Origin: Christensenellales bacterium
Lineage (GTDB): Bacteria > Bacillota > Clostridia > Christensenellales > UBA3700
DNA length: 64,000 nt
Reading direction: 5' to 3'
Assembly (NCBI GenBank): GCA_051883395.1
Contig: JBJETQ010000002.1
Span: 16,456-80,455, forward strand
The notes beneath the pieces were generated by a model that searched no databases, was not told the DNA's origin, and saw only the letters and a list, made by a program, of their open reading frames with translations. Positions 3,843-59,074 of this stretch are shown here, piece by piece; position 1 is the first letter of the stretch, and each line of letters starts with the position of its first letter. The translations under genes were made by a program, and so were the position numbers.

Positions 3843-3892
3843 ATTTTATATTATATATATTAATATTTTTTCTGTCAAGGCAGGTTAAAAGC

Positions 3893-4849
3893 TTAATACA
3901 CACAATTAATGGTATTTCCTGCCAAAAAGCTCTTAATATTATTACAAGCTTCTTTCAGCAATCTTTCCCTTGCGCTCACGCTCGCCCATGCTATATGCGG
4001 AGTAATGATAGCTTTGGGATGAGAAATAAGGCTGTTATTGGCAGTCGGCGGTTCGCATGCCGATACGTCTGCCGCATAACCTGCCAGTTTACCGCTGTCC
4101 AACGCCTGCACAACCGCATCTTCATCTACCAGACCGCCCCTTGCGGTATTTATTATCATAGCTCCGTCTTTCATACGCTCTATCGAACTTTTGTTTATTA
4201 TCTTAGCGCTGTCGGCATTGAGCGGACAATGCAGACTGATCACGTCGCAATTTTTCATTATATCGTCTATTTTGGCAAACTCGGCGTTCTCGTCCATGAC
4301 TTTTTTTCGATTGTACCCATACACTTTCATACCCAAAGCCTTTGCCGCCTTGGCTACGCAACGGCCAATCGAGCCATAACCTATCAGTCCTATACTCTTG
4401 CCATCCAGTTCTACAATCTCCTGCACTCTATAACAAAAGTCGGGGCATCTGGCCCAATCACCATTCTTTACAGAATCGCTGTGTTTGCCAACACCCATAC
4501 ACAATTCCAATAGCAGAGCAATAGTCAACTGTGCTACCGAAACCGAAGAATAGGCAGGCACGTTACAGACGGGAATATTGCGGCTCTTTGCATAAGATAT
4601 ATCCACTACGTCGTAGCCGGTAGAAAGCAGCCCTATATATTTGAGCCTGTCAAACTTTGACAACAAACTCTCGTCAAGTCTTACCTTGTTGTCCAATATT
4701 ATATCGGCGTCCTTAGCTCTTATTACAGCTTCTTCTCTGCTGCTGCGTGGGTACACGGTCAAATCTCCCAGTTCTTGCAGCTCGCCCCAGCTTATATCGC
4801 CAGGATTTACTGCGTTTCCGTCAAGCACAACGATTTTCAATTTATTCAT
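3893..4849 (-). CDS. D-isomer-specific 2-hydroxyacid dehydrogenase (glycerate/hydroxypyruvate reductase type)
   Basis: 318 aa with the NAD-binding motif GLIGYGSIGRCVAKAAKALGMKV, then NTARGGLVDE and ITPHIAWAS. RBS GGAGAGAG lies upstream. Confidence 0.85.
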   Translation of the reverse strand: MNKLKIVVLDGNAVNPGDISWGELQELGDLTVYPRSSREEAVIRAKDADIILDNKVRLDESLLSKFDRLKYIGLLSTGYDVVDISYAKSRNIPVCNVPAYSSVSVAQLTIALLLELCMGVGKHSDSVKNGDWARCPDFCYRVQEIVELDGKSIGLIGYGSIGRCVAKAAKALGMKVYGYNRKKVMDENAEFAKIDDIMKNCDVISLHCPLNADSAKIINKSSIERMKDGAMIINTARGGLVDEDAVVQALDSGKLAGYAADVSACEPPTANNSLISHPKAIITPHIAWASVSARERLLKEACNNIKSFLAGNTINCVY

Positions 4850-4859
4850 ACTCTCTCCG

Positions 4860-4885
4860 TTTTTGTCGATACGTATCGACTTTTT
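4860..4885 (-). repeat. Recurrent A-run/palindrome element, perfect copy
   Basis: The sense (minus) strand reads AAAAA GTCGATACGTATCGAC AAAAA, with a perfect 16-bp palindrome at 4865-4880. It starts directly after the TAA of the methyltransferase gene (4884) and ends 6 nt before the next RBS. Confidence 0.85.
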
Positions 4886-6260
4886 ACACTCTTAGATTCT
4901 TTCTCAATCCCTTAGGATAATGATTTTTTGCTTGCTGTCCGTCGCCCTTGCACCAGCCGCATGCAAAGCCGTCAACGCACACCAGTCCCCAACCCTTAAA
5001 GCCGCAATCAAGCGTATTGCCGTCAAAATACTGAAATATCTTATCGCCGTGCAAATCGCAGTTTATTATTCTTTTTGCCCATTGGGGTTGCAGATATATT
5101 GCCAAAGAATGCGACGGTTCGAATCTGTCCTTTTTAATCTCGCCAAGCTGCAGTCCGCATCTGAGTACCTTTACTCCTTTCAGCGTCGGCAATTGCTGTG
5201 GAACGGCATACAGATTATCCCCAAAAGCCGCCGTAGGAGACAGCTTTACGTTAAGGTTATCTTTTTGCCAATCGTCAAATACTTTTCTTTGCTTTGGCAA
5301 AACACACGGCAGAGAAAACGTTGCCTTCCTTTTTTCTTCGCCCTGCTTTTGCATCACGCAAAAAAAGTGTCCTTCTCCTTTAACTTTGTGCGGAAATATC
5401 CGCTGTGCCAGCACAATATCCTTTATCTTATCCTGAGTATTTTCAATCTTACAATCTTCAAACCTTACCATTGGCTCGACAATGCGCATATCGCAATGCC
5501 TGTTCAAAAATTGTTCAATGGTTTTCTCGTTTTCTTCTATCTCAAAAGTGCATGTGGAATAAACCATTTTTCCGCCGCATCCGAGCATCTTGTATGCACT
5601 ATCCAGTATTGCGCCTTGCCTTTGGGCGCAGGCGGCAACGCTTTCTTCGCTCCACTCGTCTATCGCTTGCGGATTTTTTCTGAACATTCCTTCTCCCGAA
5701 CATGGGGCGTCCACCACTATTTTGTCAAAATACTCCTTCCACTTGTCTTCCAGTTCGTAGGGAGAATTGTTGGTTACCACGGCATTGGGTATTCCCATTC
5801 TTTCGATATTTTGCGAAAGTATTTTTGCTCTTGACGGCACTATTTCGTTGGCAATCAACAGTCCGCTTCCTGCCAGTTTGCAGGCTATTTGCGTTGCTTT
5901 GCCGCCGGGAGCGGAACAAAGGTCCAGCACAACGTCTCCCGGTTCTACACCGAGCGCTTCCACCACGCTCATTGCGCTTGCTTCCTGAATATAATAAAGT
6001 CCTGCTTCGTGATAGGGGTGTTTGCCGGGTTTTTGTTCGTCGTCATAATAAAATCCGCTGTCGCACCAACCCACTTCATCGAGTTGACCTTTCCACAGCA
6101 GCTTCAACTCATTGGCAGACAATTTGAGAGTATTGACTCTCAACGAACAGTAATGAGCTTTGCAATAGCTCGCTTCAAAATCATAATATTCCTGAGCCAG
6201 CAAAGCCTTCATTCTCTCGACAAAAGCCGCAGGCAGCTTGGATATAATCACGCTTTCCAT
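4884..6260 (-). CDS. RNA cytosine-C5 methyltransferase, NOL1/NOP2/Sun (RsmB/RsmF-like)
   Basis: 458 aa with the SAM motif DLCSAPGGKATQ and the catalytic Cys motifs DAPCSGEGMFRK and VYSTCT. Confidence 0.85.
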   Translation of the reverse strand: MESVIISKLPAAFVERMKALLAQEYYDFEASYCKAHYCSLRVNTLKLSANELKLLWKGQLDEVGWCDSGFYYDDEQKPGKHPYHEAGLYYIQEASAMSVVEALGVEPGDVVLDLCSAPGGKATQIACKLAGSGLLIANEIVPSRAKILSQNIERMGIPNAVVTNNSPYELEDKWKEYFDKIVVDAPCSGEGMFRKNPQAIDEWSEESVAACAQRQGAILDSAYKMLGCGGKMVYSTCTFEIEENEKTIEQFLNRHCDMRIVEPMVRFEDCKIENTQDKIKDIVLAQRIFPHKVKGEGHFFCVMQKQGEEKRKATFSLPCVLPKQRKVFDDWQKDNLNVKLSPTAAFGDNLYAVPQQLPTLKGVKVLRCGLQLGEIKKDRFEPSHSLAIYLQPQWAKRIINCDLHGDKIFQYFDGNTLDCGFKGWGLVCVDGFACGWCKGDGQQAKNHYPKGLRKNLRV

Positions 6261-27622: not shown

Positions 27623-30600
27623 TCAACTTATCGTCAGACCGGTATCTTCTACGTAGATAAATCCGCCATAGTTGCTACCGCTTATCAGCGTATTTCCGCT
27701 GTGTCTTACGCCGTAACCGTCCGCTTTGACTACGTTGTCAAGCACGTCCTTGATAGTCCACTTGATAGGAGTGTCCAATGTGAGTGAACCGACCTTTTCG
27801 ATACTTATGATTTCCGTTTCCATAATCTTGGTTTTGAGAGAATCTGTCGAATCGAACAACGTGGTGTCTCCTTCTTCTACGGTGCGGTTACTGTTGATGA
27901 TGTCTTGGAGAATCTTTTGCTGCTCGGCTGTCATATTGTTGAACATCAACGTAGTCGTGTATTCGGTTGAGTCAATATCGATAAATGCCGTAACGTCTAT
28001 ACTTTCAGGAAGCAAGGTCGTGGTCTTGCTCATAAGCCCCGAAGTCTTGATATTGAGTGTCAGCAACATATACGACTCACTCTCGAACGTCATACCACTA
28101 AAACCGTCTTTGACTGCCGTGGCATTGATATAGTCAGGATTGAACATCAAAACCTGCTTATAAGTTACGTCCGAAGTGCCAAGTCCCAAAGCCGACGATA
28201 CGCCGCTGCTACCGTCTTCATTGTCAAGCAACGCTGCCGCAATATTACGGTCGCTGATTTCCATAGCGACTTCTCCGTGTGGAAGCGGAGTTGCAACATA
28301 TTGTGCGCTGACCTGTTCCGACGACATCTTGTCGTCAATGGCATTGATATTATCCTGGCCGACGACGTCCGTAAGAGTGAACAACGCCTTCATCATACCT
28401 TGGAAATCTGCTTCGCTAGGTTTTACCCCGTCGCTGTAAATGTTTTTGATTGCCAGTCCGTATATAGTGGAGAAGGTAATCGTACCGCCCTGTGTGTTGG
28501 CATCGATATCTGTGGTGGAATACTCCATCTGAGTTCCTGCCGTCATTTCGCCGAGTTTGTTCTTGACCTTGTCGGAAGCGTCGGCATTGATGTCGTCAGG
28601 CGTTACAGTCTTATCTGCGACAATCTTGAAAAGATTGCAGAATACGTCCAAATCGGCATCGTCCATATCGTTGATGGTAAAGGCGGTACATACTTCGCTC
28701 GTACCTACTTTTGACAAGTCTACGTCTACGACAATTGCCACACCGCTTGGCAGCAGAGTCGCATATTTACCTGCGCTTTCGGAAGAAATATTTGCCGTAA
28801 ATACTATGCGCATCGTGCTGGCGGACGTTATGGTCAGACTTGTCATCGATACGTGTTCCAATCCTTCTGCACTTATCGTAACGTCTCCGCTGAGCAGACG
28901 GGCAAGTTCACCGCCGCTTGCTTGCGGTTTGAGAGCCACGCCGTCGTTGACGCTTCTGGTATCGGCAGCCATTGCCTGACCGTCTATCATCGTGGCATAC
29001 TTGGTTGTGATTGTGGTAATCTGCTCAGATACGTCGCCAGTTGTGTTTATCGGTGTTTTGAGATAATATTTACTGTTGATTTCTTCGGCAAATCTGCTCA
29101 TATCCGTTGCGATATTGCTTTGCGACAATTCTTCCGGAATCACGTTGACTTTTTGCAATACGCTTCTCAGTTCCACATTGGACGGTTTGGACAATTCTCC
29201 TGCGTAAATCTGACTGATTGCTATATCGAATACCGTAGTGTTGAGATTCATCACTCCGTCGCCAAACGTTATATCGATAGTTCTGTCGGCTACTATGTCA
29301 TCCATAAAGCCATAGATGTTGTCTTCGAGAGTTTGTCTTACTCCTTCTGCCGTAACTTCATTTCCGCCAAGTTTGGTAGCCACGCTGAAAAAGTTGTTCA
29401 TCTGCTCGGTGGTCATTCCGTCAATATCGAAACTTGCACAATCGACGTCGGCGCCTTCAAGCTTTTGTCTCAGCAACGCCGTATCTACCGTTACGTTGAC
29501 GTAAACCTGTCTTGGTAACAATACGGAATATTTAGCATTTTCGCCAGTCAGCTGTATCTCGCCGCTGAGTTGCATTGTCATCTGTGTTGCGGTGATACGG
29601 GTAGAAACTACCTTGATGTTTTTCATGACGCTGACAACGTTGTCGAGCTTTCCGCTGGACTGGATAAGAAATCCCAGTTCTTCCTGAGAGAGCGACGGTT
29701 TCAACTCGTCGATGTCGGTAGTATCGGTTGCCATTTTGTTGACGTCTATACTCGTCTCAAAGTTGTTTTTGATAGTAGTTACGCTGTTGAACAGAGCTGC
29801 ACCGTCGGAAGGGTCCAGCGTGTCGGTAGTGATATAGTATTTGTTTTCCAACTCGGTTACAAAGCCGACTGCGCCGACGCTTACGTTGACGGTATCTGCT
29901 TCAAAGGTATATGCCGCTTTCAACATGTCGTGCAATTGAGCGTCGTCGACAACAGGGTTATTGCTTTCGTCTTTGAGCATTCCCAGTCCCGTCGCCGTCT
30001 CGAATATCGACGGCAATATACAGCCTGTGCTTGTAAATTCTATATCCGTACCGAGTTTTTCGTTGATTTTGGTAAGATTTTCTCTCACGCTGTCTTCAAG
30101 TTTTGTAGTAAGCTCCGATATATTGAAAGAACTTACGTCGATGCCTAGTCCCGAACACAGTTTGTTGAGATTGTCAAGCAATTCCAACGTCTGCTCTTTG
30201 GTACAGTTGTTGATACAAATCTCCGTCTCTTTTTCGGCGTCGGTCAGACTTAGTCTTGCCTTGATAAATATTTGTTCAGGCAATATCTGCGGCGCAAATA
30301 TGGCAATAAGCGAACCTTCTTCCGCCTTGCCTGCAATACTCTCCAATACGTCGACTGCAATGACTACTTCCAGCATTCCTTCCGTCTGGTCATAGCTCAT
30401 ATTGAGTATCGTTATAGGAAAAGCCGACGCTTCGCTGCTGCCTGATGAGAGCTGACTGTTGAGCAAACCTGCCATAGCCAGATAGGACATCGAAACTTTG
30501 TGATTGTCGGCAATATAACTGCCGCTGTCGTAATTGAGCGTAGCAAGATTAATCTTTTCGAGCATAGCGTCGTCCTGCATCAAGCTCGTTACACTACTGA

Positions 30601-31876
30601 AAACGTTGTCGGTGGTGATAAGGTCGTCGCTGTTATCAAATCCGTATTTTGCAGTAAAGTCATCTATAAATTCTTCTACGTTCTGATTGCGCAACTGAGT
30701 GGTATATTGTGCAACGCCGACTGCGGTAGCATCAGGCAACTTGAAGTCCCTGATGAGATACAAAAACTGTGCTTCGCCCAAGTCTACGTCCAATACGTTC
30801 ATAAGCGCTTCCACAGGTTTCATATCACAACCGGAATCGACGAATGATATTGGTATTACTTCGTTGAGTTTGGCAACAACGTCTTTGACGGCATTGTTGA
30901 TTGTCTGCATTATTGGCACTTCTCCGCCCACCACATCGTTGAGCAGATTTACCAGTTTATCCATCAATTCTTTGTCAATCTGATTGATGACGACGCTTGC
31001 AGAACCGTTTTCGTCATTAGGTCTGACGTCCATGCTTACAAAAATCGTCTTTGGCAACAAACCCGACACAAACGAAGGTACGGAAGTGTTTTTCAACAGC
31101 TCGGGAGCCAGCGACGCCACGTCGATTTTGATGGTGAGAGTAAGAACTACGTCTTCCAGCTTTGCACCCGCCACGCTCTCAATGATAATCTGCGAAATAC
31201 TTACGTGTTGGAGATATTGCGCATATTGGGATATCGACGCAAGCGGAGACGACTGGTCTGTCTCTCCTTCGGCAGACTGTGTGATATAATATTGGAATAC
31301 GCTGTCTATCAAAGCGGCGAACTGTTTGTCTGTTACTTCGAGAATATTCTCCTCTCCGCTGTAAGTAGCCAATGAAGAAAAATCGAACTCTATACTTTTG
31401 AGAAGTGCGTCAAGAGCCTCGTTGCCGGTACCTTCGGGAGCAGATTCCGCCAAAACCATTGGCGTAGATTCTTCTTCTTCCGATTTGCTTGAAGACGCTG
31501 CGTCCAGTATGTCGATTATGTCAATATCGCTGTCTTCCGACAAATAGGTCTTTTTCTTGAATTCGGTATAAAAATCGTCCAAATCTGATTGGGAATACGG
31601 ATTGGTAACGATTTCGCTTTCGTTGGCTTTGTACAAAGAAGTCAATACGTTGAAGGCTTCGGATATACTAAGTCCTACCTTTGGCTCGACGTATTTTCCC
31701 CAAGCCCATATTCCGCCGCCTGCAATACCTGCTACAAGCACCACAAAAATTACTACCAAGGTAACGATACAAGATAAGCAACCGTGGCTTTTCTTTTCTC
31801 GCTTTGGCTCCTTTTTGTTCTTGCGTTTGTCGTTTGGCGTTACGTCGTCCAAATCTATTTTGTTTTTCTTTGCCAT
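27623..31876 (-). CDS. Giant single-pass membrane protein with five internal repeats of an unrecognised module
   Basis: 1417 aa. A Lys-rich N-terminus precedes one TM helix (CIVTLVVIFVVLVAGIAGGGIWAW). Five modules share a beta-like strand, then (L/I)LP-x3-(hydrophobic/polar alternation)-D, then (I/F)N(N/D)(M/C)(T/D)xE/D...L. RBS GGGAG lies 7 nt upstream. Confidence 0.8.
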   Translation of the reverse strand: MAKKNKIDLDDVTPNDKRKNKKEPKREKKSHGCLSCIVTLVVIFVVLVAGIAGGGIWAWGKYVEPKVGLSISEAFNVLTSLYKANESEIVTNPYSQSDLDDFYTEFKKKTYLSEDSDIDIIDILDAASSSKSEEEESTPMVLAESAPEGTGNEALDALLKSIEFDFSSLATYSGEENILEVTDKQFAALIDSVFQYYITQSAEGETDQSSPLASISQYAQYLQHVSISQIIIESVAGAKLEDVVLTLTIKIDVASLAPELLKNTSVPSFVSGLLPKTIFVSMDVRPNDENGSASVVINQIDKELMDKLVNLLNDVVGGEVPIMQTINNAVKDVVAKLNEVIPISFVDSGCDMKPVEALMNVLDVDLGEAQFLYLIRDFKLPDATAVGVAQYTTQLRNQNVEEFIDDFTAKYGFDNSDDLITTDNVFSSVTSLMQDDAMLEKINLATLNYDSGSYIADNHKVSMSYLAMAGLLNSQLSSGSSEASAFPITILNMSYDQTEGMLEVVIAVDVLESIAGKAEEGSLIAIFAPQILPEQIFIKARLSLTDAEKETEICINNCTKEQTLELLDNLNKLCSGLGIDVSSFNISELTTKLEDSVRENLTKINEKLGTDIEFTSTGCILPSIFETATGLGMLKDESNNPVVDDAQLHDMLKAAYTFEADTVNVSVGAVGFVTELENKYYITTDTLDPSDGAALFNSVTTIKNNFETSIDVNKMATDTTDIDELKPSLSQEELGFLIQSSGKLDNVVSVMKNIKVVSTRITATQMTMQLSGEIQLTGENAKYSVLLPRQVYVNVTVDTALLRQKLEGADVDCASFDIDGMTTEQMNNFFSVATKLGGNEVTAEGVRQTLEDNIYGFMDDIVADRTIDITFGDGVMNLNTTVFDIAISQIYAGELSKPSNVELRSVLQKVNVIPEELSQSNIATDMSRFAEEINSKYYLKTPINTTGDVSEQITTITTKYATMIDGQAMAADTRSVNDGVALKPQASGGELARLLSGDVTISAEGLEHVSMTSLTITSASTMRIVFTANISSESAGKYATLLPSGVAIVVDVDLSKVGTSEVCTAFTINDMDDADLDVFCNLFKIVADKTVTPDDINADASDKVKNKLGEMTAGTQMEYSTTDIDANTQGGTITFSTIYGLAIKNIYSDGVKPSEADFQGMMKALFTLTDVVGQDNINAIDDKMSSEQVSAQYVATPLPHGEVAMEISDRNIAAALLDNEDGSSGVSSALGLGTSDVTYKQVLMFNPDYINATAVKDGFSGMTFESESYMLLTLNIKTSGLMSKTTTLLPESIDVTAFIDIDSTEYTTTLMFNNMTAEQQKILQDIINSNRTVEEGDTTLFDSTDSLKTKIMETEIISIEKVGSLTLDTPIKWTIKDVLDNVVKADGYGVRHSGNTLISGSNYGGFIYVEDTGLTIS

Positions 31877-32531: not shown

Positions 32532-35500
32532 TCAGAAATTGATAATGCCGCTGAACACTTCCACAGACGTACCCTTCAACAATACGCCGTCGTCGGTATA
32601 TCTGACTACCATATCGCCGCCTGATTGTTTGACGGTGATATCGGTATACTTTGGCAAGTAGCCGTTGAGAACTGCGCTGACCACTACCGCACAGCTTCCG
32701 CTGCCGCTGGCAAACGTTTCGCCGCAACCCTTGTCCCAGATACGAGCTTTGACGGTATGTCTGTCGATGACTTTTGCAAATTCGACGTTGGTTCGCTCTG
32801 GGAATATGCTGTCGTATTCCAGTTGGGAGCCGAGTTTGGATATATCTACGTTGTCAAGATGTTCTACAAACAATACGCAATGCGGATTGCCCATAGACAG
32901 GACGTTGAGCAGGTATTCCTTTCCGTCTACCGTGTAAGGAACGCCGATTGCGTTTTTGCCCGACAATTTGACAGGAATCTGCGCCGGTTTGAGTACCGGA
33001 GTACCCATATTGACGGTCATATACATAGCTTCTCCGTCCTGCGTCTTGATTTTGATGTCTCTGATGCCGGTAGGAGTTTCGACGGTGATGTCTAGTTTGT
33101 TGACTTTGCGGTTGTCGTAGAGATATTTTGCCACGCCGAACAAACCGTTGCCGCATACCGCTCCCTGCGAGCCGTCGCAGTTGAAAATACGCATTTTGGC
33201 ATCTGCTATCTCCGACTTTTCGATGAGAATAATGCCTTCCGCTCCCACTCCGAAATGTCTGTCGGACATTCTTACGGCAACGCCTTCCGGATTGTCTATG
33301 CTCACACCGTCCAGACAATCGAAGAAAATTCTGTCGTTGCCTGCGCTGTGCATTTTGACAAATTTGTGAGCCTGTTTGCCTTTGCGCAGCTTGTTGATGT
33401 CTACGAGTTCGGTATTATATTCGCTGTATCTGCTCATAAGACAGTTGGCAACGGCGTTGGCAGTATCTATTGACGTAAGACAAGGTATAGAACGTTCTAC
33501 CGCCTTTCTTCTTATCTTGACGCTATCACGGGTGGGAAGCTTGCCTTTGGAAGACGTGGAGATGATGTAATCTATCTTTCCGCTCTCGATGAGAGTAAGG
33601 TTGTTGTGTTCCATATTCTGATGTATTTTGTCCACCGTTACTACTTCCAAGCCCCTTTCTCTCAATACTCTTGCCGTTCCTTTGGTGGCGTAGAGAGTAT
33701 AGCCCAAATCTTCAAACTTCTGCGCAATATCTCCTATCTCCGCCTTGTCCTGATCTCGTACTGTGATGAATATTCCGCCCTTTTTCTTCATGCGGTATCC
33801 CGCCGCAACCAAACCTTTGAACAAAGCTTCTTCCAGCGTGTCAGCCAGTCCCAATACTTCTCCCGTTGACTTCATCTCAGGTCCTAACTGGGTATCTACG
33901 TTGACGAGCTTTGCAAATGAGAATACAGGAACTTTGACGGCAACGTAATTGGACTTAGGATACAGCCCTGTGCCGTAACCCATATCGGACAACTTTTCTC
34001 CAAGGATACATCTGGTGGCAAGGTCCACCATTGGCACGCCCGTTACCTTGCTGATATAAGGTATCGTACGTGAACTTCTTGGGTTAACTTCTATAACATA
34101 CAGTTCTTCTTCATAGATAAGGTATTGAATATTGACGAGTCCGACGGTATGCAGATTGATGGCAAGCATTTTGGAACACTCCACTATTCTTGCCAGCATT
34201 TCGTCGCTGAGATTCCAGGAAGGATAGACGGCAATCGAGTCTCCCGAGTGTATACCTGTTCTTTCGATGTGTTGCATTACTCCCGGAATAAGAATGTCTT
34301 CTCCGTCGCAAATTGCGTCTACTTCTATCTCCCGTCCCATAAGATATTTGTCTATAAGAACGGGGTTTTCTATCTTCTGAGAGAGTATTACGTCCATATA
34401 TTCGATGACGTCGGCGTCGGAATGGCAAACGCACATATTCTGACCGCCAAGCACGTATGACGGACGCAACAAGGTAGGATAACCTATCTTGTTGGCCACG
34501 TCCAAAGCTTCTTCTTTGGTCATTACTGTATAGCCGACAGGACGTTTGATTTGCAGTTTTTCAAGCAATTCGTCAAAGAGTTCTCTGTCTTCCGCCATAT
34601 CGATATATTCCGCCTGCGTGCCGAGAATTCTGATGTTTTTCTCCCTGAAAAGTTTGGTAAGTTTGATGGCTGTCTGACCGCCGAACGCAACCACCACGCC
34701 GTCCGGCTTTTCGGTGTTGATGATATTAAGCACGTCTTCGTTGGTAAGCGGCTCGAAGTAGAGTCTGTCTGCCGTGTCAAAGTCGGTTGATACGGTCTCG
34801 GGATTGTTGTTGACGATGACTACTTCGTATCCTTTGCGTTTGAGCGCCCATACGCAATGTACGGAAGCGTAGTCAAATTCTACGCCCTGACCTATACGGA
34901 TAGGACCGCTGCCGAAAACGATAACTTTCTTTTTGCCGTTGGAATGAGCTTTGATAAATTCTTCCGCTTCGTTTTCGCTGTCGTAGGTAGAATAGAAATA
35001 CGGCGTCTGCGCAGGAAACTCTGCGGCGCAGGTGTCAACCATTTTGTAAGAAGCATGGATAGGTCTGGTTATCTTTTTGCCGCTTATTCTTTCGATAGAA
35101 GAATCCAAAAATCCTATCTTTTTGGCTTGCAGATAGAGTTCGTCGTCAAGTTGTTGTGTGGCAAGCGCTCTTTCCATATCGATAATGTTGGCTATCTTGT
35201 TGAGAAACCATCTGTCTATTCTCGTCTTGGTGTGAATTTCGTTGACGGTTACTCCCCTTCTTAGCAATTCGTATATGACAAAAATACGTTCGTCGTCGCA
35301 AGAGAGCATTTTGTCCTGCAATTCCATATCGCTCATTGCCGCAATTTTTTTGTTGTAGAGAGTATCCATCGATATTTCCGCTCCCCTGACAGCCTTCATA
35401 AGCGCCTGCTCAAAGGAAGAACCGATGGACATTACTTCGCCCGTGGCTTTCATCTGAGTACCGAGTTGACGGCTGGCATAGAAGAATTTGTCAAACGGCC

Positions 35501-36578
35501 ACTTAGGAAATTTGACTACTATATAATCGACGCTTGGCTCGTTGCAGGCGTAAGTGCAACCCGTAACCGAGTTTCTGATTTCGTCAAGGGCGTATCCTAT
35601 GGCAATTTTGGTGGCAACCTTGGCTATCGGATAGCCCGTCGCTTTGCTGGCGAGCGCCGAACTGCGGCTCACTCTCGGATTGACTTCAATGACGGCATAC
35701 TGCATGCTGTCGGGGTGGAGAGCAAACTGAACGTTGCAACCGCCTTCGACTTTGAGTGCGTTGACTATTTTGAGAGCAGCGCTGCGCAACATTCCGAATT
35801 CTTTTTCGGACAAAGTAATTGCGGGAGCGACGACTATACTGTCGCCGGTGTGTACACCGACAGGGTCGACGTTTTCCATACTGCACACGGTGATGCAGTT
35901 GCCAAGAGAATCTCTGATGACTTCAAATTCTATCTCTTTCCAGCCGCTGATACACTTTTCGACCAATATCTGATGGATAGGGCTAAGGCGCAATCCGTTT
36001 TCTGCTATATCTTCAAATTCTTCCCTGTTGTGTGCAATGCCGCCGCCTGTGCCGCCTAACGTAAACGCAGGACGAATGATGACGGGATAACCGATTTGCT
36101 CTGCTACCATTACGCCGTCGTCCATAGTGTTGACGACTTCGGACGGAATGACGGGTTCATTGATTTGGGCAAGGGTATCCTTGAAACTCTGTCTGTCTTC
36201 CGCTCTGTCTATCGTCTCGGGATTAGCACCCAGAAGTCTGACTCCCATCTTGTCCAAAAAGCCTTCTTTTGCCAACTGCATGCTCAGCGTAAGCCCCGTC
36301 TGTCCGCCGAGAGTGGATAGCAGGCTGTCGGGACGTTCCTTTTCGATAATTCTTTTGACGGTGGTGAGAGTCAGCGGCTCGATATAAATTCTGTCTGCCA
36401 CCGCATTGTCGGTCTGAATTGTTGCCGGATTGGAATTGACAAGCACGACTTCGAGATTGTCTTCTTTGAGCGCACGACACGCCTGCGTTCCTGCGTAGTC
36501 AAATTCCGCCGCCTGTCCGATGACGATAGGTCCCGAACCGATAACCATTACTTTGTGTAAATCTTTGTTGAGTGGCAT
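32532..36578 (-). CDS. carB: Carbamoyl-phosphate synthase large subunit fused to a C-terminal DapF-like (diaminopimelate epimerase fold) domain
   Basis: 1348 aa. Residues 1 to ~1070 are colinear with CarB, with two ATP-grasp halves and an MGS-like tail ending NKLRKGKQA. The last ~277 aa (nt 32535-33368) carry DapF motifs FVKMHSAGND, NCDGSQGAVCGNG, SMGNPHCV and DKGCGETFASGSGSCA. Confidence 0.85.
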   Translation of the reverse strand: MPLNKDLHKVMVIGSGPIVIGQAAEFDYAGTQACRALKEDNLEVVLVNSNPATIQTDNAVADRIYIEPLTLTTVKRIIEKERPDSLLSTLGGQTGLTLSMQLAKEGFLDKMGVRLLGANPETIDRAEDRQSFKDTLAQINEPVIPSEVVNTMDDGVMVAEQIGYPVIIRPAFTLGGTGGGIAHNREEFEDIAENGLRLSPIHQILVEKCISGWKEIEFEVIRDSLGNCITVCSMENVDPVGVHTGDSIVVAPAITLSEKEFGMLRSAALKIVNALKVEGGCNVQFALHPDSMQYAVIEVNPRVSRSSALASKATGYPIAKVATKIAIGYALDEIRNSVTGCTYACNEPSVDYIVVKFPKWPFDKFFYASRQLGTQMKATGEVMSIGSSFEQALMKAVRGAEISMDTLYNKKIAAMSDMELQDKMLSCDDERIFVIYELLRRGVTVNEIHTKTRIDRWFLNKIANIIDMERALATQQLDDELYLQAKKIGFLDSSIERISGKKITRPIHASYKMVDTCAAEFPAQTPYFYSTYDSENEAEEFIKAHSNGKKKVIVFGSGPIRIGQGVEFDYASVHCVWALKRKGYEVVIVNNNPETVSTDFDTADRLYFEPLTNEDVLNIINTEKPDGVVVAFGGQTAIKLTKLFREKNIRILGTQAEYIDMAEDRELFDELLEKLQIKRPVGYTVMTKEEALDVANKIGYPTLLRPSYVLGGQNMCVCHSDADVIEYMDVILSQKIENPVLIDKYLMGREIEVDAICDGEDILIPGVMQHIERTGIHSGDSIAVYPSWNLSDEMLARIVECSKMLAINLHTVGLVNIQYLIYEEELYVIEVNPRSSRTIPYISKVTGVPMVDLATRCILGEKLSDMGYGTGLYPKSNYVAVKVPVFSFAKLVNVDTQLGPEMKSTGEVLGLADTLEEALFKGLVAAGYRMKKKGGIFITVRDQDKAEIGDIAQKFEDLGYTLYATKGTARVLRERGLEVVTVDKIHQNMEHNNLTLIESGKIDYIISTSSKGKLPTRDSVKIRRKAVERSIPCLTSIDTANAVANCLMSRYSEYNTELVDINKLRKGKQAHKFVKMHSAGNDRIFFDCLDGVSIDNPEGVAVRMSDRHFGVGAEGIILIEKSEIADAKMRIFNCDGSQGAVCGNGLFGVAKYLYDNRKVNKLDITVETPTGIRDIKIKTQDGEAMYMTVNMGTPVLKPAQIPVKLSGKNAIGVPYTVDGKEYLLNVLSMGNPHCVLFVEHLDNVDISKLGSQLEYDSIFPERTNVEFAKVIDRHTVKARIWDKGCGETFASGSGSCAVVVSAVLNGYLPKYTDITVKQSGGDMVVRYTDDGVLLKGTSVEVFSGIINF

Positions 36579-40378: not shown

Positions 40379-40384
40379 TTGAAA

Positions 40385-40411
40385 AGAGAAACGAAAGTTT
40401 CTCTTTTTTTT
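40385..40411 (+). terminator. Intrinsic terminator after asnA
   Basis: AGAGAAAC-gaaa-GTTTCTCT followed by TTTTTTT. Confidence 0.8.
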
Positions 40412-40484: not shown

Positions 40485-41741
40485 TTATTTCTTGACCAAA
40501 ACCTTTTTGAGACGAGCAAATCTTGGCAAGCCGTCTTCGAGCGGAGCTTTGCAATCGCCTTGAATGAGTGGCAAAGCGTAATCAACGTAGTCTTGCGAAA
40601 GCATTGTGCCGTCGTTGATAATCCACTCGGCAGGAATCTTCTTTTCGGTGTTGGCAGCCTTAGAAAGACCTACTACGCCGATTTTGCACTTATATTTGCC
40701 GTTTGCGCCCGTTGCTCTTTTGAGTACGACCATCTTGTCGGTGGTGCCTTTGACAGCATACTTAACTGCGGCTGCGCCCGACTTGAATGCTTCTTCTACG
40801 TCCACCTTGGAAGCAAGGTGTGCGCCGCATCTTTGCATAAGGCTGAATTCGATTGCTCTGGTCTTGTGTCCGAATTTCTCTTTGCACAGGTTGCTGAGTG
40901 CTGCGCCTACACCGCCGAGTTGAGCGTGTCCGAAACTATCTTTTGCAATGTTCTTGTTGAGAGTTTCTGCGATAAGTTCGCCGTTTTCGTTGGCGATACC
41001 TTCGGAGATGGCAATCATACATTTGCCGTTGTTCTCTGCAAGTTTTTTCTCTACGTCGGCAAGGAATTTGTCGGTGTTGAAAGGAACTTCCGGGAGATAA
41101 ATGAGGTCAGGTCCCAGTCCTTTGTAGTTTGCCAAAGAAGCTGCTGCGGTCAACCAACCTGCATGTCTGCCCATGATTTCTACTACCGTAATCATTGGGG
41201 TATCGTAAACGTTGGCGTCAAGTTTGAGTTCCATCATTGTAGTAGCAACGTACTTGGCTGCGGAAGCATATCCAGGACAATGGTCGGTACCGAAAAGGTC
41301 GTTGTCGATGGTCTTAGGTACGCCCATAACTCTCATTTCCCAATCGTTCTTTTTCATGAACTTACTGATTTTGTTGCAAGTATCCATAGAATCGTTGCCA
41401 CCGTTGTAGAAGAAGTATCTGATGTTGTATTTTTTGAATACTTCGAGCAATCTTCTGTAATCGGTGTCGTCCTTTTTGACGTCTTTGAGCTTGTATCTTA
41501 CCGAACCCAAAGCAGACGAAGGAGTATTTTTGAGAAGCATAAGTTCGCTCATGTCTTCTTGGGACATGTCGTAAAATTCTTCGTCAAGTACACCCTTGAT
41601 GCCGTGTGCGGCTCCGTAAACTGCGGTAATGCAGTCTTGTTTGAGTGCTTCGGTAAATACGCCCGCAGCACTTGCGTTGATAACGGATGATGGTCCGCCC
41701 GATTGACCGAACATCAATGCTCCTACCAATTTCTTTTCCAT
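40485..41741 (-). CDS. pfp: Pyrophosphate-dependent phosphofructokinase (diphosphate-fructose-6-phosphate 1-phosphotransferase)
   Basis: 418 aa with GQSGGPSSVINAS, GGNDS in place of the ATP-type GGDG, and PKTIDNDL, whose Lys is typical of PPi-PFKs. Confidence 0.75.
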   Translation of the reverse strand: MEKKLVGALMFGQSGGPSSVINASAAGVFTEALKQDCITAVYGAAHGIKGVLDEEFYDMSQEDMSELMLLKNTPSSALGSVRYKLKDVKKDDTDYRRLLEVFKKYNIRYFFYNGGNDSMDTCNKISKFMKKNDWEMRVMGVPKTIDNDLFGTDHCPGYASAAKYVATTMMELKLDANVYDTPMITVVEIMGRHAGWLTAAASLANYKGLGPDLIYLPEVPFNTDKFLADVEKKLAENNGKCMIAISEGIANENGELIAETLNKNIAKDSFGHAQLGGVGAALSNLCKEKFGHKTRAIEFSLMQRCGAHLASKVDVEEAFKSGAAAVKYAVKGTTDKMVVLKRATGANGKYKCKIGVVGLSKAANTEKKIPAEWIINDGTMLSQDYVDYALPLIQGDCKAPLEDGLPRFARLKKVLVKK

Positions 41742-41761
41742 AAGTAAACCTCCAAAAATAA

Positions 41762-42730
41762 TTAACTTCCTAATATTGTCGCTGTCTTATACAGCTCTTT
41801 GTTGAACACTCTCGGCATAGCCAACGCTTCGCTGATGTCGTCGTCTATGATTTGATTGTTGCGTATACCGACTACTCTACCGCCCTTGTCGGCTTTGAGT
41901 ACGTCAACTGCCCTTACGGCAAATTTGGCGGCAAGCATACGGTCCTGCATAGATGGCGCACCGCCCCTTTGGATATATCCGAGCGTCGTCGTCTTGATGC
42001 TTCCTTCAACTCCTTTTTCTTTGAGCTGAGCTTTGAGTTCTTCCGCCTTGCAGACGCCTTCGGCAAGTACGATGATGTCGGAAGTCTTGCCTAGCCTTTG
42101 ATTGCGTCTTATTCCCTTGACGACGTTGTCGATGTTGAACTCAACTTCCGGTACGAGTATAAGCTCAGCGCCACCGCCAATACCGGAATATAGTGCGATA
42201 TCACCGCATTTTCTGCCCATAACTTCGATTATACACACACGGTCGTGGGACGTCATGGTGTCTCTGAGATTGTTGATTGCTCCGAGAACGGTGTTGCAGG
42301 TAGTATCAAAGCCAAGCGTAAAATCGGTATATGCAAGGTCGTTGTCAATAGTACCCGGAATACCCACCGTCTTGACGCCGAACATATCGTACAGGTCTTT
42401 TGCGCCCCTGAAACTTCCGTCGCCGCCAATGACGACAAGTCCTTCGATGCCATAGTCGTCAAGAGCGTCTACCGCCCTTGCCATAACTTCCTTCTGGACA
42501 AACTCCGGACATCTTGCCGTTTTGAGCATTGTGCCGCCACGCTGAATGATGTCGGACACGCTACGTTTGTTCATCATGTTGATGCTGCCTTGAAGTAAGC
42601 CTACGTATCCTTGATTGATGCCGTAAACTTCAAGTCCTTGGTCAATGGCGTATCTGGTAACCGCTCTTATGCAAGCGTTCATACCCGGAGCGTCGCCACC
42701 GCTCGTCAAAACTCCTATTTTTCTCATCAT
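41762..42730 (-). CDS. pfkA: ATP-dependent 6-phosphofructokinase
   Basis: 322 aa with RKIGVLTSGGDAPGMNACIRAV, VVIGGDGSFRGA and PGTIDNDL. Its start overlaps the stop of the upstream TRAP-like gene (ATGATGA). Confidence 0.9.
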   Translation of the reverse strand: MMRKIGVLTSGGDAPGMNACIRAVTRYAIDQGLEVYGINQGYVGLLQGSINMMNKRSVSDIIQRGGTMLKTARCPEFVQKEVMARAVDALDDYGIEGLVVIGGDGSFRGAKDLYDMFGVKTVGIPGTIDNDLAYTDFTLGFDTTCNTVLGAINNLRDTMTSHDRVCIIEVMGRKCGDIALYSGIGGGAELILVPEVEFNIDNVVKGIRRNQRLGKTSDIIVLAEGVCKAEELKAQLKEKGVEGSIKTTTLGYIQRGGAPSMQDRMLAAKFAVRAVDVLKADKGGRVVGIRNNQIIDDDISEALAMPRVFNKELYKTATILGS

Positions 42731-42957
42731 TCTTCTCCGCAGGTCAACTGTCCGTATTTTGTCAGAACAGTTGCTTTACCCCTGATTTTCATAGCAGAAA
42801 TATTTTCTGTAAACTGTACCAAAAGCACTTCGTTTTTGTTGATGCTCTCGGTATGCTGAGGTTTGGTACCGTCCCCTCTAGTCAAGCCTATAATCTGAAC
42901 GTTGTTTTCCAACGCTTTGACCGCTACGTATTCTCCACCGACAAACTGATTGTCCAT
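42727..42957 (-). CDS. mtrB: TRAP (trp RNA-binding attenuation protein, MtrB) homologue
   Basis: 76 aa: ...EYVAVKALENNVQIIGLTRGDGTKPQHTESINKNEVLLVQFTENISAMKIRGKATVLTKYG... It aligns over about 69 positions, at roughly 45% identity, with B. subtilis MtrB as I recall it ([54 protein letters not shown]). RBS AGAGGTGA lies upstream. Confidence 0.8.
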   Translation of the reverse strand: MDNQFVGGEYVAVKALENNVQIIGLTRGDGTKPQHTESINKNEVLLVQFTENISAMKIRGKATVLTKYGQLTCGEE

Positions 42958-43019
42958 ACTTCACCTCTTTTCACATAATTCTAACATATTTTTTTGATAA
43001 TTACTACTTTTTTATATAA

Positions 43020-46000
43020 TTATTCTTTAATTAATATATTTTCGGCGCCAACAATATCCTTTATCTGATTGATTACGTTGTCCCGACAGGCTATTTTTTC
43101 GTCAAGACGATACAACTTTCCGTCAAACTGTATGATTACGCCCGATTTGCCGGGAGCTTTCTGACATACAGACCTGACCATTCCGTATTGTCCCATATTG
43201 ACAATTTTGACGTAAACACGCTTTTCGTTGTTGTCCTGCTTCTTTTCTTCGGGTTTGCTCTCTCCCACCGATACGAAACCTTTGTTGTCCCAGTCGTTGA
43301 CTTCGGTTACGGCAATGGATACCCTGTCGTTGTTGGTATTTATTCTGCCCTTTATTTTGACAATTATATCGTCTTTGAGTACGTCGATATATTTGCCAAG
43401 AACGGTAGGAAAAAATACCAGTTCGACAGTTGCATACAAATCTTCAAGTTCCGCATACGCCATAAGTTTACCCTTTTTGGTAACGCTCTTTTTGAAATGG
43501 CTCAGCATTCCGCCCAAAACGACTTCTTTGTCGGAATACCTGGCTATCAATTCGTCTCTTTCGTTGATTACGCCTTCTTCGCCTTCTTCGTCTTCGCTTG
43601 CCGCAGTAAGCAAAGGAGCAATGAGTGAAAGATTGAAATCAAACTGTTCAAAAGCCTGACGATATTGTTCCAACGGGTGTCCCGTCATATATATATTCAG
43701 AACTTCCTTTTCGTAAGCGTACTTCTGACGGGAATCAAGCTCGTTGAGCTTTGGCACGTCGTCTTCTTGCGTGTTGTCTTCTCCCAGCAGGTCGAACAAA
43801 CTCATCTGTCCGTCGCAATGTTTCTTTTTGGAATTGTTGTAGGTAGCGAGCAGATTTTCGTAACATGCCAGCAATGACGCTCTGGTATGTCCGAAACAGT
43901 CGAATGCACCGCCCTTGATAAGCGCTTCGAACATACGCTTGTTGATAGTGCCTGCCGGCAACCTGTTGAGCAAATCTCCTATCGATTTGAATTCGCCGTT
44001 TTCGTTGCGCTCTCTGACAAGCACTTCCATAGCCGCTTGTCCTACGTTTTTGATACCGCCCAGTCCGAATCTTATAGAATCGTCCTTTGCCCTGAAAATA
44101 TAATCGCTCTTGTTGATGTCAGGCGGCAACACGGTCTTGCCCTTTTCTCTCAAAAACGTGAGATATTTTGCTATTTCGTCGGCTTTGGTGATGCGATTGT
44201 TGATGACGGCGGCAACCAACTCTACCAGATAATATCTCTTGATGTAGCCCGTTTCGTACGCAAGAACGGCATACGCCGCAGCGTGCGACTTGTTGAAAGC
44301 ATACTTGGCAAAGCTCTCCATATCGTCGAATATCTTGCTTGCAACTTCGGCAGGTACGCCCCTTTTTACCGCTCCGTCAACGGCTAGTTCGTGCTTCTGA
44401 ATAACTTCGCCCAGCTCGTTGCGGATTTCTTGCTTTTCAGGACAACCGTTGATGAAAATGTCCTTTTCCTTTTTCATCACGTCGACCTTCTTTTTGCCCA
44501 TTGCACGACGCAGAATGTCGGCTCTGCCCAGCGTGTAACCTGCAAGCTGTTGCACTACTTGCATAACTTGTTCCTGATATACCAGACAGCCGTACGTCAT
44601 GTTGAGAATAGGCTCCAACAAAGGATGGTCGTATCTGATATTTTCGGGATTATGCTTGGCGCTGACATAGGCTGGAATACTGTCTATAGGACCCGGCCTG
44701 AAAAGCGAAATGCCCGCTATGATATCTTCAAGACATTCCGGTTGGAGCTGCATCATAAAGTTTTTCATGCCGGCAGATTCCAACTGGAACACGGCGTCGG
44801 TTTCACCCGAACTGATGAGCTTGTAGACTTCCGGGTCTTCGTAACCCAGCTTGTCAAAATCAATCTCTACACCGTAATTTTCTTTGATATATTGTTTGGC
44901 TTTGCTCAAATCGGTAAGTGTGGTAAGTCCCAAAAAGTCCATTTTGAGCATGCCCAATTCTTCTACTTCGTCCTTCTGGAATTGAGTGGTGATATCGTTG
45001 CCGTTTCTCTGCAAAGGAACGTAATCGGATATTATTTCCTTACATATTACCACACCTGCTGCGTGCTTGGAACAGTTGCGTGGCATACCTTCGATTTTGA
45101 GAGCCATGTCGATAACCCGTCGCATCTCGTCGTCGTTTTCGTACAGCTCGATAACTTCGGGACATTTGCTGGCTTCCAATTCGGCTCTTTTCTTTTCTCT
45201 CTCATCGGGGTCTTTGATGTCGTCCACACTCACCCTGCCCAGCACCATATCGAGAGTAAGCCCCGGCGTGTTTGGAATGGCTTTGGTGGTCTTGGTTACC
45301 TTGTCAAGACTGACATTCATCACTCTGGCGACGTCCTTGATGGCTCCCTTGGCTTTCATCGTGCCGAGAGCGAGAATCTGACATACCTTTTCTTTGCCAT
45401 ATCTGCGTATAACGTAATCGATGACTTCCCCACGTCTGTCCATACAGAAATCTACGTCAAAATCGGGGGCGGACACACGCTCAGGATTGAGAAATCTTTC
45501 AAAGAGCAGATTGTATTTCAATGGGTCGACGTTGGTGATATGTATAGCATAGGCTATGATACTGCCTACGCCGCTGCCCCTGCCTGCACCCACAGGTATC
45601 CCCTGTCCACGAGCATAGTTGATAAAGTCCCACACTATAAGATAGTATTCGTCAAAGCCCATACGGTGTATGATTCCCAGCTCGTATTCCGCTCTCTCGA
45701 TAATATCTTCTCTCAATGGGTCGCCATAACGCTTTTTGAGTCCGTCGTAGGCAAGTTTGCGTAAAAATTGCTCGGGAGTAGAACCGTCGTCAGGCTTGTA
45801 AGGCGGCATAAGGTCTTGCTTTTTTATCTCGATGTTGCACTTTTCCATTACTTCGACGGTGTTGGTTACCGCTTCGGGACACCAACTGAAAAGCTGCATC
45901 ATCTCGTCGTAATCTTTGAGATAAAACTGGTCGCTGTCAAATCTCATTCTGTCAACGTCGTCGAGTTTTTTGCCCGTCTGGATACACAAAAGCGTGTCGT

Positions 46001-46685
46001 GCATCTCTGCGTCCGACTGCTCGATATAATGCACGTCGTTGGTCGCCACGACTTTGACTCCTATTTCTTTGGCAAGTTTGACCAGCAAAGGATTGATTTT
46101 CTTTTCTTCCGCTATTCCGTGGTCCTGAATTTCGATGTAAAAATCGCCTTCGTCAAATATAGATTTGAGCATAAGTGCGTATTGTTTGGCACTCTCATAG
46201 TCGCCTGCAACCAGATATGACGATATCGTTCCCGAAAGACAGCCAGAAAGACAAATAACGCCTTTGGCATGCTGTCTGAGAAGTTCGATATCTATTCTCG
46301 GTTTGTAATAAAAACCTTCAACATATGCCAAAGAATCCATCTTGACTATGTTGCGATAGCCTTCTGTGGTTTTTGCAAGCAAAACAAGGTGGTATCTCTT
46401 TTTGTCTTCCTTGTGCATGTCGTCGCACACATAAAATTCGCAACCTATAATAGGTTTGATACCCTTCTGTCTGGCAGCCTTGTAAAAGGTAAAAGCTCCG
46501 AACATGTTGCCGTGGTCGGTAAGAGCGCAACCCGGCATCTGCTTATCAAGACAAGCCGCAAGCAAAGGCGACTTTTTGCCTTTGGTTATTCTTGCCGCAC
46601 CGTCAAGCAAACTGTACTCGCTGTGCAAATGCAAATGCACAAAGGGTTTGACAACTCTCTTGCCGCTATCTTTTTCATCTGCCAT
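43020..46685 (-). CDS. dnaE: DNA polymerase III alpha subunit
   Basis: 1221 aa with an N-terminal PHP domain (FVHLHLHSEYSLLDGA), a polymerase core (GRGSGVGSIIAY, PDFDVDF) and an OB fold near the C-terminus. Confidence 0.95.
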   Translation of the reverse strand: MADEKDSGKRVVKPFVHLHLHSEYSLLDGAARITKGKKSPLLAACLDKQMPGCALTDHGNMFGAFTFYKAARQKGIKPIIGCEFYVCDDMHKEDKKRYHLVLLAKTTEGYRNIVKMDSLAYVEGFYYKPRIDIELLRQHAKGVICLSGCLSGTISSYLVAGDYESAKQYALMLKSIFDEGDFYIEIQDHGIAEEKKINPLLVKLAKEIGVKVVATNDVHYIEQSDAEMHDTLLCIQTGKKLDDVDRMRFDSDQFYLKDYDEMMQLFSWCPEAVTNTVEVMEKCNIEIKKQDLMPPYKPDDGSTPEQFLRKLAYDGLKKRYGDPLREDIIERAEYELGIIHRMGFDEYYLIVWDFINYARGQGIPVGAGRGSGVGSIIAYAIHITNVDPLKYNLLFERFLNPERVSAPDFDVDFCMDRRGEVIDYVIRRYGKEKVCQILALGTMKAKGAIKDVARVMNVSLDKVTKTTKAIPNTPGLTLDMVLGRVSVDDIKDPDEREKKRAELEASKCPEVIELYENDDEMRRVIDMALKIEGMPRNCSKHAAGVVICKEIISDYVPLQRNGNDITTQFQKDEVEELGMLKMDFLGLTTLTDLSKAKQYIKENYGVEIDFDKLGYEDPEVYKLISSGETDAVFQLESAGMKNFMMQLQPECLEDIIAGISLFRPGPIDSIPAYVSAKHNPENIRYDHPLLEPILNMTYGCLVYQEQVMQVVQQLAGYTLGRADILRRAMGKKKVDVMKKEKDIFINGCPEKQEIRNELGEVIQKHELAVDGAVKRGVPAEVASKIFDDMESFAKYAFNKSHAAAYAVLAYETGYIKRYYLVELVAAVINNRITKADEIAKYLTFLREKGKTVLPPDINKSDYIFRAKDDSIRFGLGGIKNVGQAAMEVLVRERNENGEFKSIGDLLNRLPAGTINKRMFEALIKGGAFDCFGHTRASLLACYENLLATYNNSKKKHCDGQMSLFDLLGEDNTQEDDVPKLNELDSRQKYAYEKEVLNIYMTGHPLEQYRQAFEQFDFNLSLIAPLLTAASEDEEGEEGVINERDELIARYSDKEVVLGGMLSHFKKSVTKKGKLMAYAELEDLYATVELVFFPTVLGKYIDVLKDDIIVKIKGRINTNNDRVSIAVTEVNDWDNKGFVSVGESKPEEKKQDNNEKRVYVKIVNMGQYGMVRSVCQKAPGKSGVIIQFDGKLYRLDEKIACRDNVINQIKDIVGAENILIKE

Positions 46686-58848: not shown

Positions 58849-58935
58849 GCCGAAGTGGTGGAATTGGCAGACGCGCCGGACTCAAAATCCGGTGATGGCG
58901 ACATCGTGCGGGTTCAAGTCCCGCCTTCGGCACCA
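58849..58935 (+). tRNA. tRNA-Leu (anticodon CAA)
   Basis: Cloverleaf read by eye: acceptor GCCGAAG/CTTCGGC, anticodon stem CCGGA/TCCGG with loop CTCAAAA, a long variable arm, T-loop GGTTCAAGTCC, and an encoded CCA. Confidence 0.9.
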
Positions 58936-58985: not shown

Positions 58986-59074
58986 GCAGATGTGGCGGAA
59001 TTGGCAGACGCGCTAGATTCAGGTTCTAGTGAAAGCTTTTTTTCATATGGGTTCAAGTCCCTTCATCTGCACCA
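58986..59074 (+). tRNA. tRNA-Leu (anticodon CAG)
   Basis: Acceptor GCAGATG/CATCTGC, anticodon stem CTAGA/TCTAG with loop TTCAGGT, a long variable arm, T-loop TTCAAGT and an encoded CCA. There is one T-T mismatch in the T stem. Confidence 0.8.

Follow-up and report, generated by a model that had tools for sequence, protein, structure and literature searches.

A divergent TRAP (MtrB) homologue encoded between dnaE and pfkA in Christensenellales

Introduction

The trp RNA-binding attenuation protein TRAP (MtrB) serves as a textbook model both of RNA binding that a ligand activates and of the engineering of protein rings. What such a protein might regulate when its gene lies between genes of replication and glycolysis is the question raised by the 64,000-nucleotide stretch analysed here (the window), part of contig JBJETQ010000002.1 of a Christensenellales metagenome-assembled genome (MAG). 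An open reading frame (ORF) of 76 codons on its minus strand, translated as MDNQFVGGEYVAVKALENNVQIIGLTRGDGTKPQHTESINKNEVLLVQFTENISAMKIRGKATVLTKYGQLTCGEE, is situated between dnaE and pfkA (Table 1). A first-pass annotation, made by a model from the letters alone, had taken the product for a TRAP homologue, had rightly recognized a Clostridia-like genome and had regarded both the host and the gene neighbourhood as odd. We show here that the product is a genuine TRAP relative and that dnaE-mtrB-pfkA is the usual position of mtrB in Clostridia; its sequence places it in a coherent subfamily that lacks two RNA-stacking residues, Lys37 and Phe32. The explanation that we favour, at a probability of about 0.6, is a functional TRAP-family ring, a tryptophan-activated RNA binder with altered repeat recognition that would act in trans.

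Results

The ORF product is a TRAP relative

The profile search that had been proposed as a check gave a significant match of the protein to Pfam PF02081 (TrpBP), with 98.2 bits (E 2.5e-28, profile positions 3-67 of 69) at a gathering cutoff of 21.3 bits, and a search of the PDB recovered every TRAP entry at E of about 1e-18. Identity to Bacillus subtilis TRAP is 45%, in agreement with the 32 identities in 69 positions counted in the first-pass annotation. An AF2 monomer model built from 13 homologues (predicted local distance difference test score, pLDDT, 85) contains seven strands, and its top 41 Foldseek matches in the PDB are all TRAP, with template modelling (TM) scores of 0.83-0.94 and root-mean-square deviations (rmsd) of 1.0-1.6 Å. 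It superposes on the TRAP structures 1QAW/1C9S with an rmsd of 1.0 Å and also on 1WAP. A genuine TRAP relative is thus confirmed by hidden Markov model (HMM) search and by fold. This identity is already annotated and not new: the identical protein is found in NCBI as MGN0771002.1, 'MAG: trp RNA-binding attenuation protein MtrB [Christensenellales bacterium]'. Against the narrower NCBIfam MtrB equivalog model NF009724, the protein scores 100 bits and stays below the curated cutoff of 117 bits.

The residues that matter for TRAP function are well described, and we number them here as in B. subtilis TRAP. Published structures and mutagenesis place the RNA contacts mainly at E36, K37, K56 and R58. 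E36, K56, R58, E42 and H34 lie on the surface and are known for contacting RNA or for supporting such contacts (PMC1474065, PMC4854314). K37 makes two contacts, stacking with its side chain on the first base of the triplet and binding the A through its main chain (PMC1474065); F32 stacks on G3, D39 hydrogen-bonds G1, and E42 and R58 form a salt bridge (PMC4854314). K37, K56 and R58 have been described as 'all required for RNA binding' (PMC3048579), and this motif was reported to be completely conserved among the TRAP sequences available in 2006 (PMC1474065). RNA affinity drops when the K37 side chain is shortened, and T30V TRAP does not need this side chain to bind RNA (PMC1474065). Little of the affinity comes from the first base of the triplet (PMC4854314). 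Of the tryptophan-pocket residues, T30 and T49 are indispensable and S53 is not, with only a limited part played by T52 (PMC1474065).

Aligned with B. subtilis TRAP, the window protein keeps the pocket residues T25, G27, T30, Q47, T49 and S53 and, on the presumed RNA-binding face, H34, E36, E42, K56 and R58. The positions that are changed are S37, P32, N39, Q20, N51 and I52. The alignment supports the first-pass annotation, which had noted an intact pocket with the K56/R58 pair and had read HTESINK in place of HSEKLDK, hence K37 to S and D39 to N with E36 retained.

A subfamily without Lys37 and Phe32

A profile search seeded with the clade gave 115 aligned clusters, and the 96 that lack K or R at position 37 are treated here as the subfamily. 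With at least 96 protein clusters and hundreds of metagenomic contigs that carry members, it is abundant in nature. Position 37 is occupied by N in 57 clusters, M in 23, S in 6, A in 5, V in 2, and G, I or Q in one each. Position 32 is P (64), S (31) or T (1), so that neither K/R37 nor F32 occurs in any of the 96. Q is found at position 20 throughout, H51 is mostly replaced by K, and position 52 is T in 82 of the 96 (I in the window protein). E36, K56, E42, H34, T25, R26 and G27 are invariant, T30 and T49 are each present in 95 clusters, and position 58 is either R (79) or K (17). Mainstream TRAPs look different: among the best 119 clusters retrieved with a profile of mainstream clostridial TRAPs, K37 and D39 are universal (119/119 each), F32 is found in 118, and Q20 and P/S32 are absent (0/119 each, versus 100% and 99% in the subfamily).

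Judged by these residue patterns, the lineage lacking K37 and F32 is a coherent subfamily of uncultured gut Clostridia, comprising Christensenellales and relatives, and it is the new element of this work; our searches of the literature turned up no description of a K37/F32-lacking TRAP subfamily. The earlier hunch of an altered RNA specificity is strengthened, because the loss of K37 is accompanied by F32 to P/S and N20 to Q across the whole subfamily.

The TRAP gene is under strong purifying selection. The ratio of nonsynonymous to synonymous substitution rates (dN/dS) lies in the range 0.02-0.14 for dS values as high as about 1.4, and is 0.04-0.06 when the window gene is compared with loci L008-L011; pfkA is comparable, with 0.02-0.04. 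In 25 loci the ORF is intact and preceded by a ribosome-binding site (RBS).

Gene order across relatives

A genome scan with one genome per GTDB species gave 21 loci, all from Christensenellales, Christensenellaceae or Ca. Ornithoclostridium MAGs. The order murB-PHP-whiA-dnaE-TRAP-pfkA-pfp is found in 20 of them, and dnaE lies directly upstream of TRAP in all 21 as well as in five of seven other lineages sampled. The loci P0014 (F32, K37, D39) and P0018 (I32, K37) both have the order dnaE-TRAP-pfkA-pyk. Other neighbours occur as well: P0024 has TRAP-pfk with dnaE absent upstream, P0013/L007 and P0044 have dnaX-dnaE-TRAP-AP endonuclease-cdaA, L028 has dnaE-TRAP-proB-proA, and P0010 is a Bacillus-like hbs...mtrB-hepS locus. 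On the long-read-like contig L052 (2672..6013) dnaE, pfkA and pyk are split into many short genes, probably by frameshift errors, and this contig supports the gene order only.

The gene can also be missing. In L031, recovered by a metagenome search from the pfkA side, pfkA and dnaE are 88% and 73% identical to those of the window, and dnaE is followed by a 170-nt spacer (3832..4000) that contains TGtTAGAAT and then by pfkA-pfp, with no TRAP in between. Its similarity to the window is bracketed by TRAP-bearing relatives, and the absence is probably a secondary loss. Two further loci, L035 and L036 (pfkA 77-78% identical), also have no TRAP upstream of pfkA. We looked for a deletion remnant in the L031 spacer and rejected it, as the alignment to the TRAP gene was not convincing.

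The setting is therefore less odd than it had seemed to the first-pass annotation. Among Clostridia, TRAP occurs widely and is annotated as a matter of routine (Carboxydothermus, Thermincola, Syntrophomonas and Heliorestis are examples), and clostridial mtrB usually lies in the order dnaE-mtrB-pfkA, also in lineages with fully canonical TRAPs and their RNA-binding residues. The simplest reading is that mtrB was inserted long ago between dnaE and the pfkA promoter region, in an arrangement that was later broken on either side, and that mtrB was once lost. Since canonical TRAPs share the slot, the partners vary and L031 does without TRAP, gene order gives no good reason to assume regulation of glycolysis or replication. 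From these comparisons the link to pfkA looks inherited, a matter of co-expression rather than of regulation.

Locus layout and coupling to pfkA

The features of the locus are collected in Table 1. HMM matches bear out dnaE and pfkA as the neighbours, and the own RBS that had been attributed to the TRAP gene is present; an equivalent GAGG motif is found in the loci of relatives. In 23 of 25 loci the TRAP ATG is preceded at 28-47 nt, or at 97 nt in L020, by an extended -10 element of the form TGnTAnAAT. In the window it is the probable promoter of a TRAP-pfkA-pfp operon, with a predicted leader of about 15 nt. The scan found no terminator-like hairpin between dnaE and TRAP on the minus strand. 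The distance from the TRAP stop to the pfkA ATG ranges from -4 to +24 nt in 23 loci. The conserved TGnTAnAAT and the short gap therefore suggest an operon TRAP-pfkA-pfp in which TRAP lies nearest to the promoter. The hairpin downstream of pfp is the probable operon end; next come asnA and purF, encoded on the other strand.

Table 1. Features of the TRAP locus and tRNA genes; positions count from the first letter of the window
Feature	Position	Strand	Basis
TRAP-family (MtrB-like) coding sequence, 76 aa, divergent Q20/P32/S37 subfamily	42727..42957	-	PF02081, PDB matches, AF2/Foldseek, dN/dS
dnaE (DNA polymerase III alpha), upstream neighbour	43020..46685	-	NF005298, 1436 bits
Shine-Dalgarno GAGGTG of the TRAP gene	42962..42967	-	sequence reading; 4 nt before TRAP ATG
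Extended -10 promoter element TGtTAGAAT (candidate)	42978..42986	-	consensus match only; 29 nt before TRAP ATG
ATP-dependent 6-phosphofructokinase pfkA	41762..42730	-	PF00365; NF002872, 412 bits; TIGR02482, 388 bits
Shine-Dalgarno GGAG of pfkA, within the final TRAP codons (C-G-E-E)	42735..42738	-	sequence reading
Pyrophosphate (PPi)-dependent phosphofructokinase pfp, third gene of the operon	40485..41741	-	NF010675, 551 bits; kept after pfkA in relatives
Terminator-like hairpin and T run, about 80 nt past the pfp stop	40382..40407	-	consensus scan
Two tRNA genes	58849..58932 and 58986..59071	+	only Rfam gathering-level matches in the window

The junction of TRAP and pfkA reads GAAGAATGATGAG and contains the ATGATGA that the first-pass annotation had pointed out. 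The TRAP stop TGA (42729..42727) overlaps both a first ATG (42730..42728) and a second ATG (42727..42725) of pfkA. The second is probably the true start, because the protein begins MRKIG... in all relatives. This arrangement argues for translational coupling of TRAP to pfkA, as had been proposed. The conserved C-G-E(-E) tail of TRAPs (42727..42740 and relatives) is encoded by TGCGGAGA(A/G), which is at the same time the pfkA Shine-Dalgarno sequence. Since the tail codons have this double role, part of the conservation of the tail may reflect the overlapping translation signal.

Several further observations concern this operon and its relatives. An ATP-dependent and a PPi-dependent phosphofructokinase in tandem (40485..42730, minus strand) are an unusual pairing of two glycolytic kinases; the pair is kept in the 20 genome loci that carry pfkA, with pfp 81-100% identical. 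The loci L014-L022, which are of the Ornithoclostridium type, share a conserved block, GCAAAATAT(T/C)AAAAAA..GTG(T/C)AAAACAAT(G/A)GAGTTTT, about 40-90 nt upstream of the TRAP ATG and just upstream of the extended -10 element, and this block may bind a regulator or act as an UP-like element at the operon promoter. The same loci have a pfkA-pfp spacer of 86-102 nt (e.g. L017, 11214..11314) with a conserved ACACGGG and a short GC hairpin without T run (e.g. GCCGC-loop-GCGGC), which could serve mRNA processing or stability. In L001 (7570..8000) the dnaE-TRAP spacer is widened to 430 nt and contains several tandem 14-nt units resembling TTGTCAAATAAAAG as well as longer repeats resembling TTGaCAAAAAATGTTATCGTCAAAAAAGTATTGCT.

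Other features of the window

The remaining genes of the window are housekeeping genes, among them murB, a PHP protein gene, whiA, carAB, purF, asnA, holA, comEC and ppa; there is also an amino-acid kinase with ACT domains (aspartokinase-like). A 1348-residue ORF (32532..36578, minus strand) combines all domains of the carbamoyl-phosphate synthase large chain with a C-terminal diaminopimelate epimerase domain (PF01678, matched in two stretches, the best at residues 1227-1331). Possibly carB and dapF are fused here; a missed stop or a frameshift in the assembly could also explain the ORF. A second long ORF of 1417 residues (27623..31876, minus strand) has no Pfam match at E <= 1e-4.

Discussion

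The locus raised the question what a TRAP in this setting regulates. We favour the reading of a functional, tryptophan-activated ring with altered repeat recognition. It builds on the observed family membership, fold, residue pattern, purifying selection, operon layout and distribution, from which we infer ring assembly, tryptophan binding, RNA binding and targets. Each subunit is modelled as a seven-stranded beta-sandwich, and homology suggests that the subunits assemble into an 11- or 12-mer ring. With L-tryptophan bound at its subunit interfaces, the ring would then bind single-stranded RNA along its rim. Because the pocket is invariant, tryptophan or a very similar compound is probably still the ligand. 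The exposed residues E36, K56, R58 and E42 are invariant too, which is difficult to account for unless the protein continues to bind RNA and, in particular, a G. E36, K56 and R58, together with E42 and H34, would continue to hydrogen-bond the third base of the triplet. Position 37 varies freely and F32 is gone, so that the stacking of these residues on the first and third bases appears to have been given up or replaced; N20 is also changed, and Q20 and K51 are candidate replacement contacts. Such a ring would be expected still to recognize repeated (N)AG-like elements, with different first-base or stacking needs or a different affinity. It would act in trans on mRNAs outside the window, most plausibly those of tryptophan synthesis or uptake genes. 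The operon position probably provides steady co-expression from a glycolytic promoter, similar to Bacillus mtrB with folE.

Several results weigh against this reading. No trp gene was recognized among the about 45 ORFs of the window that were scanned against Pfam. (G/U/A)AG or NAG arrays at 2-3-nt spacing, scanned in strict and lenient forms, fill at best 7 of 11 slots in the 64 kb, and shuffled sequences reach maxima of 7-9. The first-pass annotation was thus right that trp genes and (G/U)AG-repeat leaders are absent from the window. The triplet scan that it proposed for the whole genome was run on the window and on about 450 kb of relatives' flanks, and found no array there; an unbiased version with all 64 triplets and 48 degenerate classes at a period of 5-6 picked up only A/T-rich low-complexity DNA in the about 450 kb of related loci. 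The eight tested members with Pro32, including the window protein, score 100-116 bits against NF009724, all below 117 bits; the Ser32/Met37 protein of L028 has 121 bits, canonical P0010 137 and B. subtilis TRAP 144. The free variation at position 37, set against the reported requirement for K37 in Bacillus TRAP (PMC3048579), may point to weak or lost RNA binding. Finally, the TRAP-pfk adjacency that recurs without dnaE in P0024 is compatible with a functional link to pfkA, which we rate as unlikely.

Other searches for targets and regulators were likewise negative. The unbiased triplet scan of canonical clostridial TRAP-pfkA loci found nothing near pfkA, and Rfam at gathering thresholds revealed no T-box or other leader in the window. 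The proposed search for anti-TRAP, carried out on the window with a regular expression for small Cys-rich ORFs, found no small CxxCxGxG ORF; the lone match of the pattern lies inside an ORF for a 16S rRNA methyltransferase of the RsmB/F family (4884..6260) and was discarded.

How far RNA recognition has changed separates three of the alternatives. The protein could have lost RNA binding altogether and kept ring and pocket, with a role as tryptophan sensor or buffer or as partner of another protein. This is unlikely. In its favour, K37, reported as one of three basic residues needed for RNA binding (PMC3048579), gives way without constraint to N, M, S, A, V, G, I or Q, the stacking residue F32 is gone, the scores fall under the equivalog cutoff and no RNA target turned up in the scans of window and related loci. 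However, E36, K56, R/K58 and E42 are invariant in the 96 clusters, are solvent-exposed and have RNA contact as their only known role. Furthermore, residue 37 contacts the A by its main chain, so that recognition of A and G can survive the loss of the side chain, and T30V TRAP does bind RNA independently of it (PMC1474065). At the other extreme, the protein may be an ordinary MtrB orthologue with unchanged (G/U)AG specificity, a trp operon elsewhere in the genome and substitutions that are neutral drift. Its NCBI name, the retention of the pocket and of three of the four main RNA residues, and the small contribution of the first triplet base to affinity (PMC4854314) are all in line with this. 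We nevertheless consider it quite improbable, because the substitutions are subfamily-wide and coordinated (Q20 and P/S32 nearly universal here and absent from mainstream clusters), a pattern unlike that expected from drift, and because the score is below the equivalog cutoff. An improbable variant of altered recognition is that the rim has been rebuilt (Q20, P/S32, no K37, often K51) for a repeat other than (G/U)AG and that the protein controls something besides tryptophan biosynthesis in small-genome, possibly tryptophan-auxotrophic Christensenellales. Candidates would be tryptophan uptake or salvage, or the central-carbon operon with TRAP as its first gene; in the latter case amino-acid status and glycolytic flux would be coupled.

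That last possibility touches on the idea that the TRAP-like protein regulates its own operon, via pfkA/pfp mRNA or the phosphofructokinase protein, and links tryptophan or another ligand to glycolysis. TRAP directly precedes a phosphofructokinase gene in 20 of the 21 species loci and also in P0030, P0018, P0014 and P0024, the last without upstream dnaE, and stop and start overlap or lie at most 24 nt apart. Yet no locus has a repeat array in the leader, the TRAP coding region, the pfkA start or the pfkA-pfp spacer, and the predicted leader measures just about 15-35 nt. L031 keeps promoter and pfkA-pfp without TRAP, L007, P0044 and L028 couple TRAP to unrelated genes, and dnaE-pfkA-pyk appears to be a pre-existing order that received mtrB. 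To our knowledge folE, the operon partner of mtrB in Bacillus, is not a TRAP target either. We thus regard regulation of the own operon as hardly probable. Literature searches on TRAP with phosphofructokinase, on mtrB with pfkA or dnaE, on PF02081, on clostridial TRAP and on tryptophan auxotrophy of Christensenellales gave nothing relevant. A decaying relic or a chance ORF might be suspected from the lack of a target in the window and from the gene loss in L031, but this is effectively refuted by the selection analysis: dN/dS is low over considerable divergence, ORF and RBS are intact in 25 loci, and the subfamily is spread over hundreds of contigs.

Comparison with known systems

Compared with TRAP from B. 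subtilis and Geobacillus stearothermophilus (1WAP, 1QAW, 1C9S), the window protein has the same length and fold (rmsd about 1 Å) and 45-48% identity. It shares T25, G27, T30, Q47, T49 and S53 as well as E36, K56, R58, E42 and H34, and differs by the changes K37 to S, F32 to P, D39 to N, N20 to Q, H51 to N and T52 to I. Keeping the pocket and the G-binding triad without K37 and F32, the subfamily is a natural experiment in the reading of RNA by such a ring. A further implication is that, in many MAGs of gut Clostridia, a different specificity or regulon may lie behind the automatically assigned name 'MtrB'. The Bacillus gene is part of a folE(mtrA)-mtrB operon, whereas the window gene follows dnaE and appears to head TRAP-pfkA-pfp. 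The Bacillus regulon finds no counterpart in the window in the form of a (G/U)AG array, a trp gene or an anti-TRAP (rtpA) ORF. The folE(mtrA)-mtrB operon and anti-TRAP are lineage-specific and do not define the family.

The canonical MtrB proteins of Clostridia (Carboxydothermus hydrogenoformans, Thermincola, Syntrophomonas; P0014, P0018) come from the same class of organisms, and P0014 and P0018 share the dnaE-mtrB-pfkA slot. They differ in that they keep F32 (or I/L), K37 and D39 and in that pfkA is followed by pyk and not by the PPi-dependent enzyme found in the window. P0010 is a Bacillus-type locus (hbs ... mtrB-hepS-menH-hepT-ndk) whose protein is 67% identical over 83% of the query; in contrast to the window protein it has canonical RNA residues and a Bacillus-like context and passes the equivalog cutoff. 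That dnaE-mtrB-pfkA is the usual clostridial order guards against over-reading this context as glycolytic regulation.

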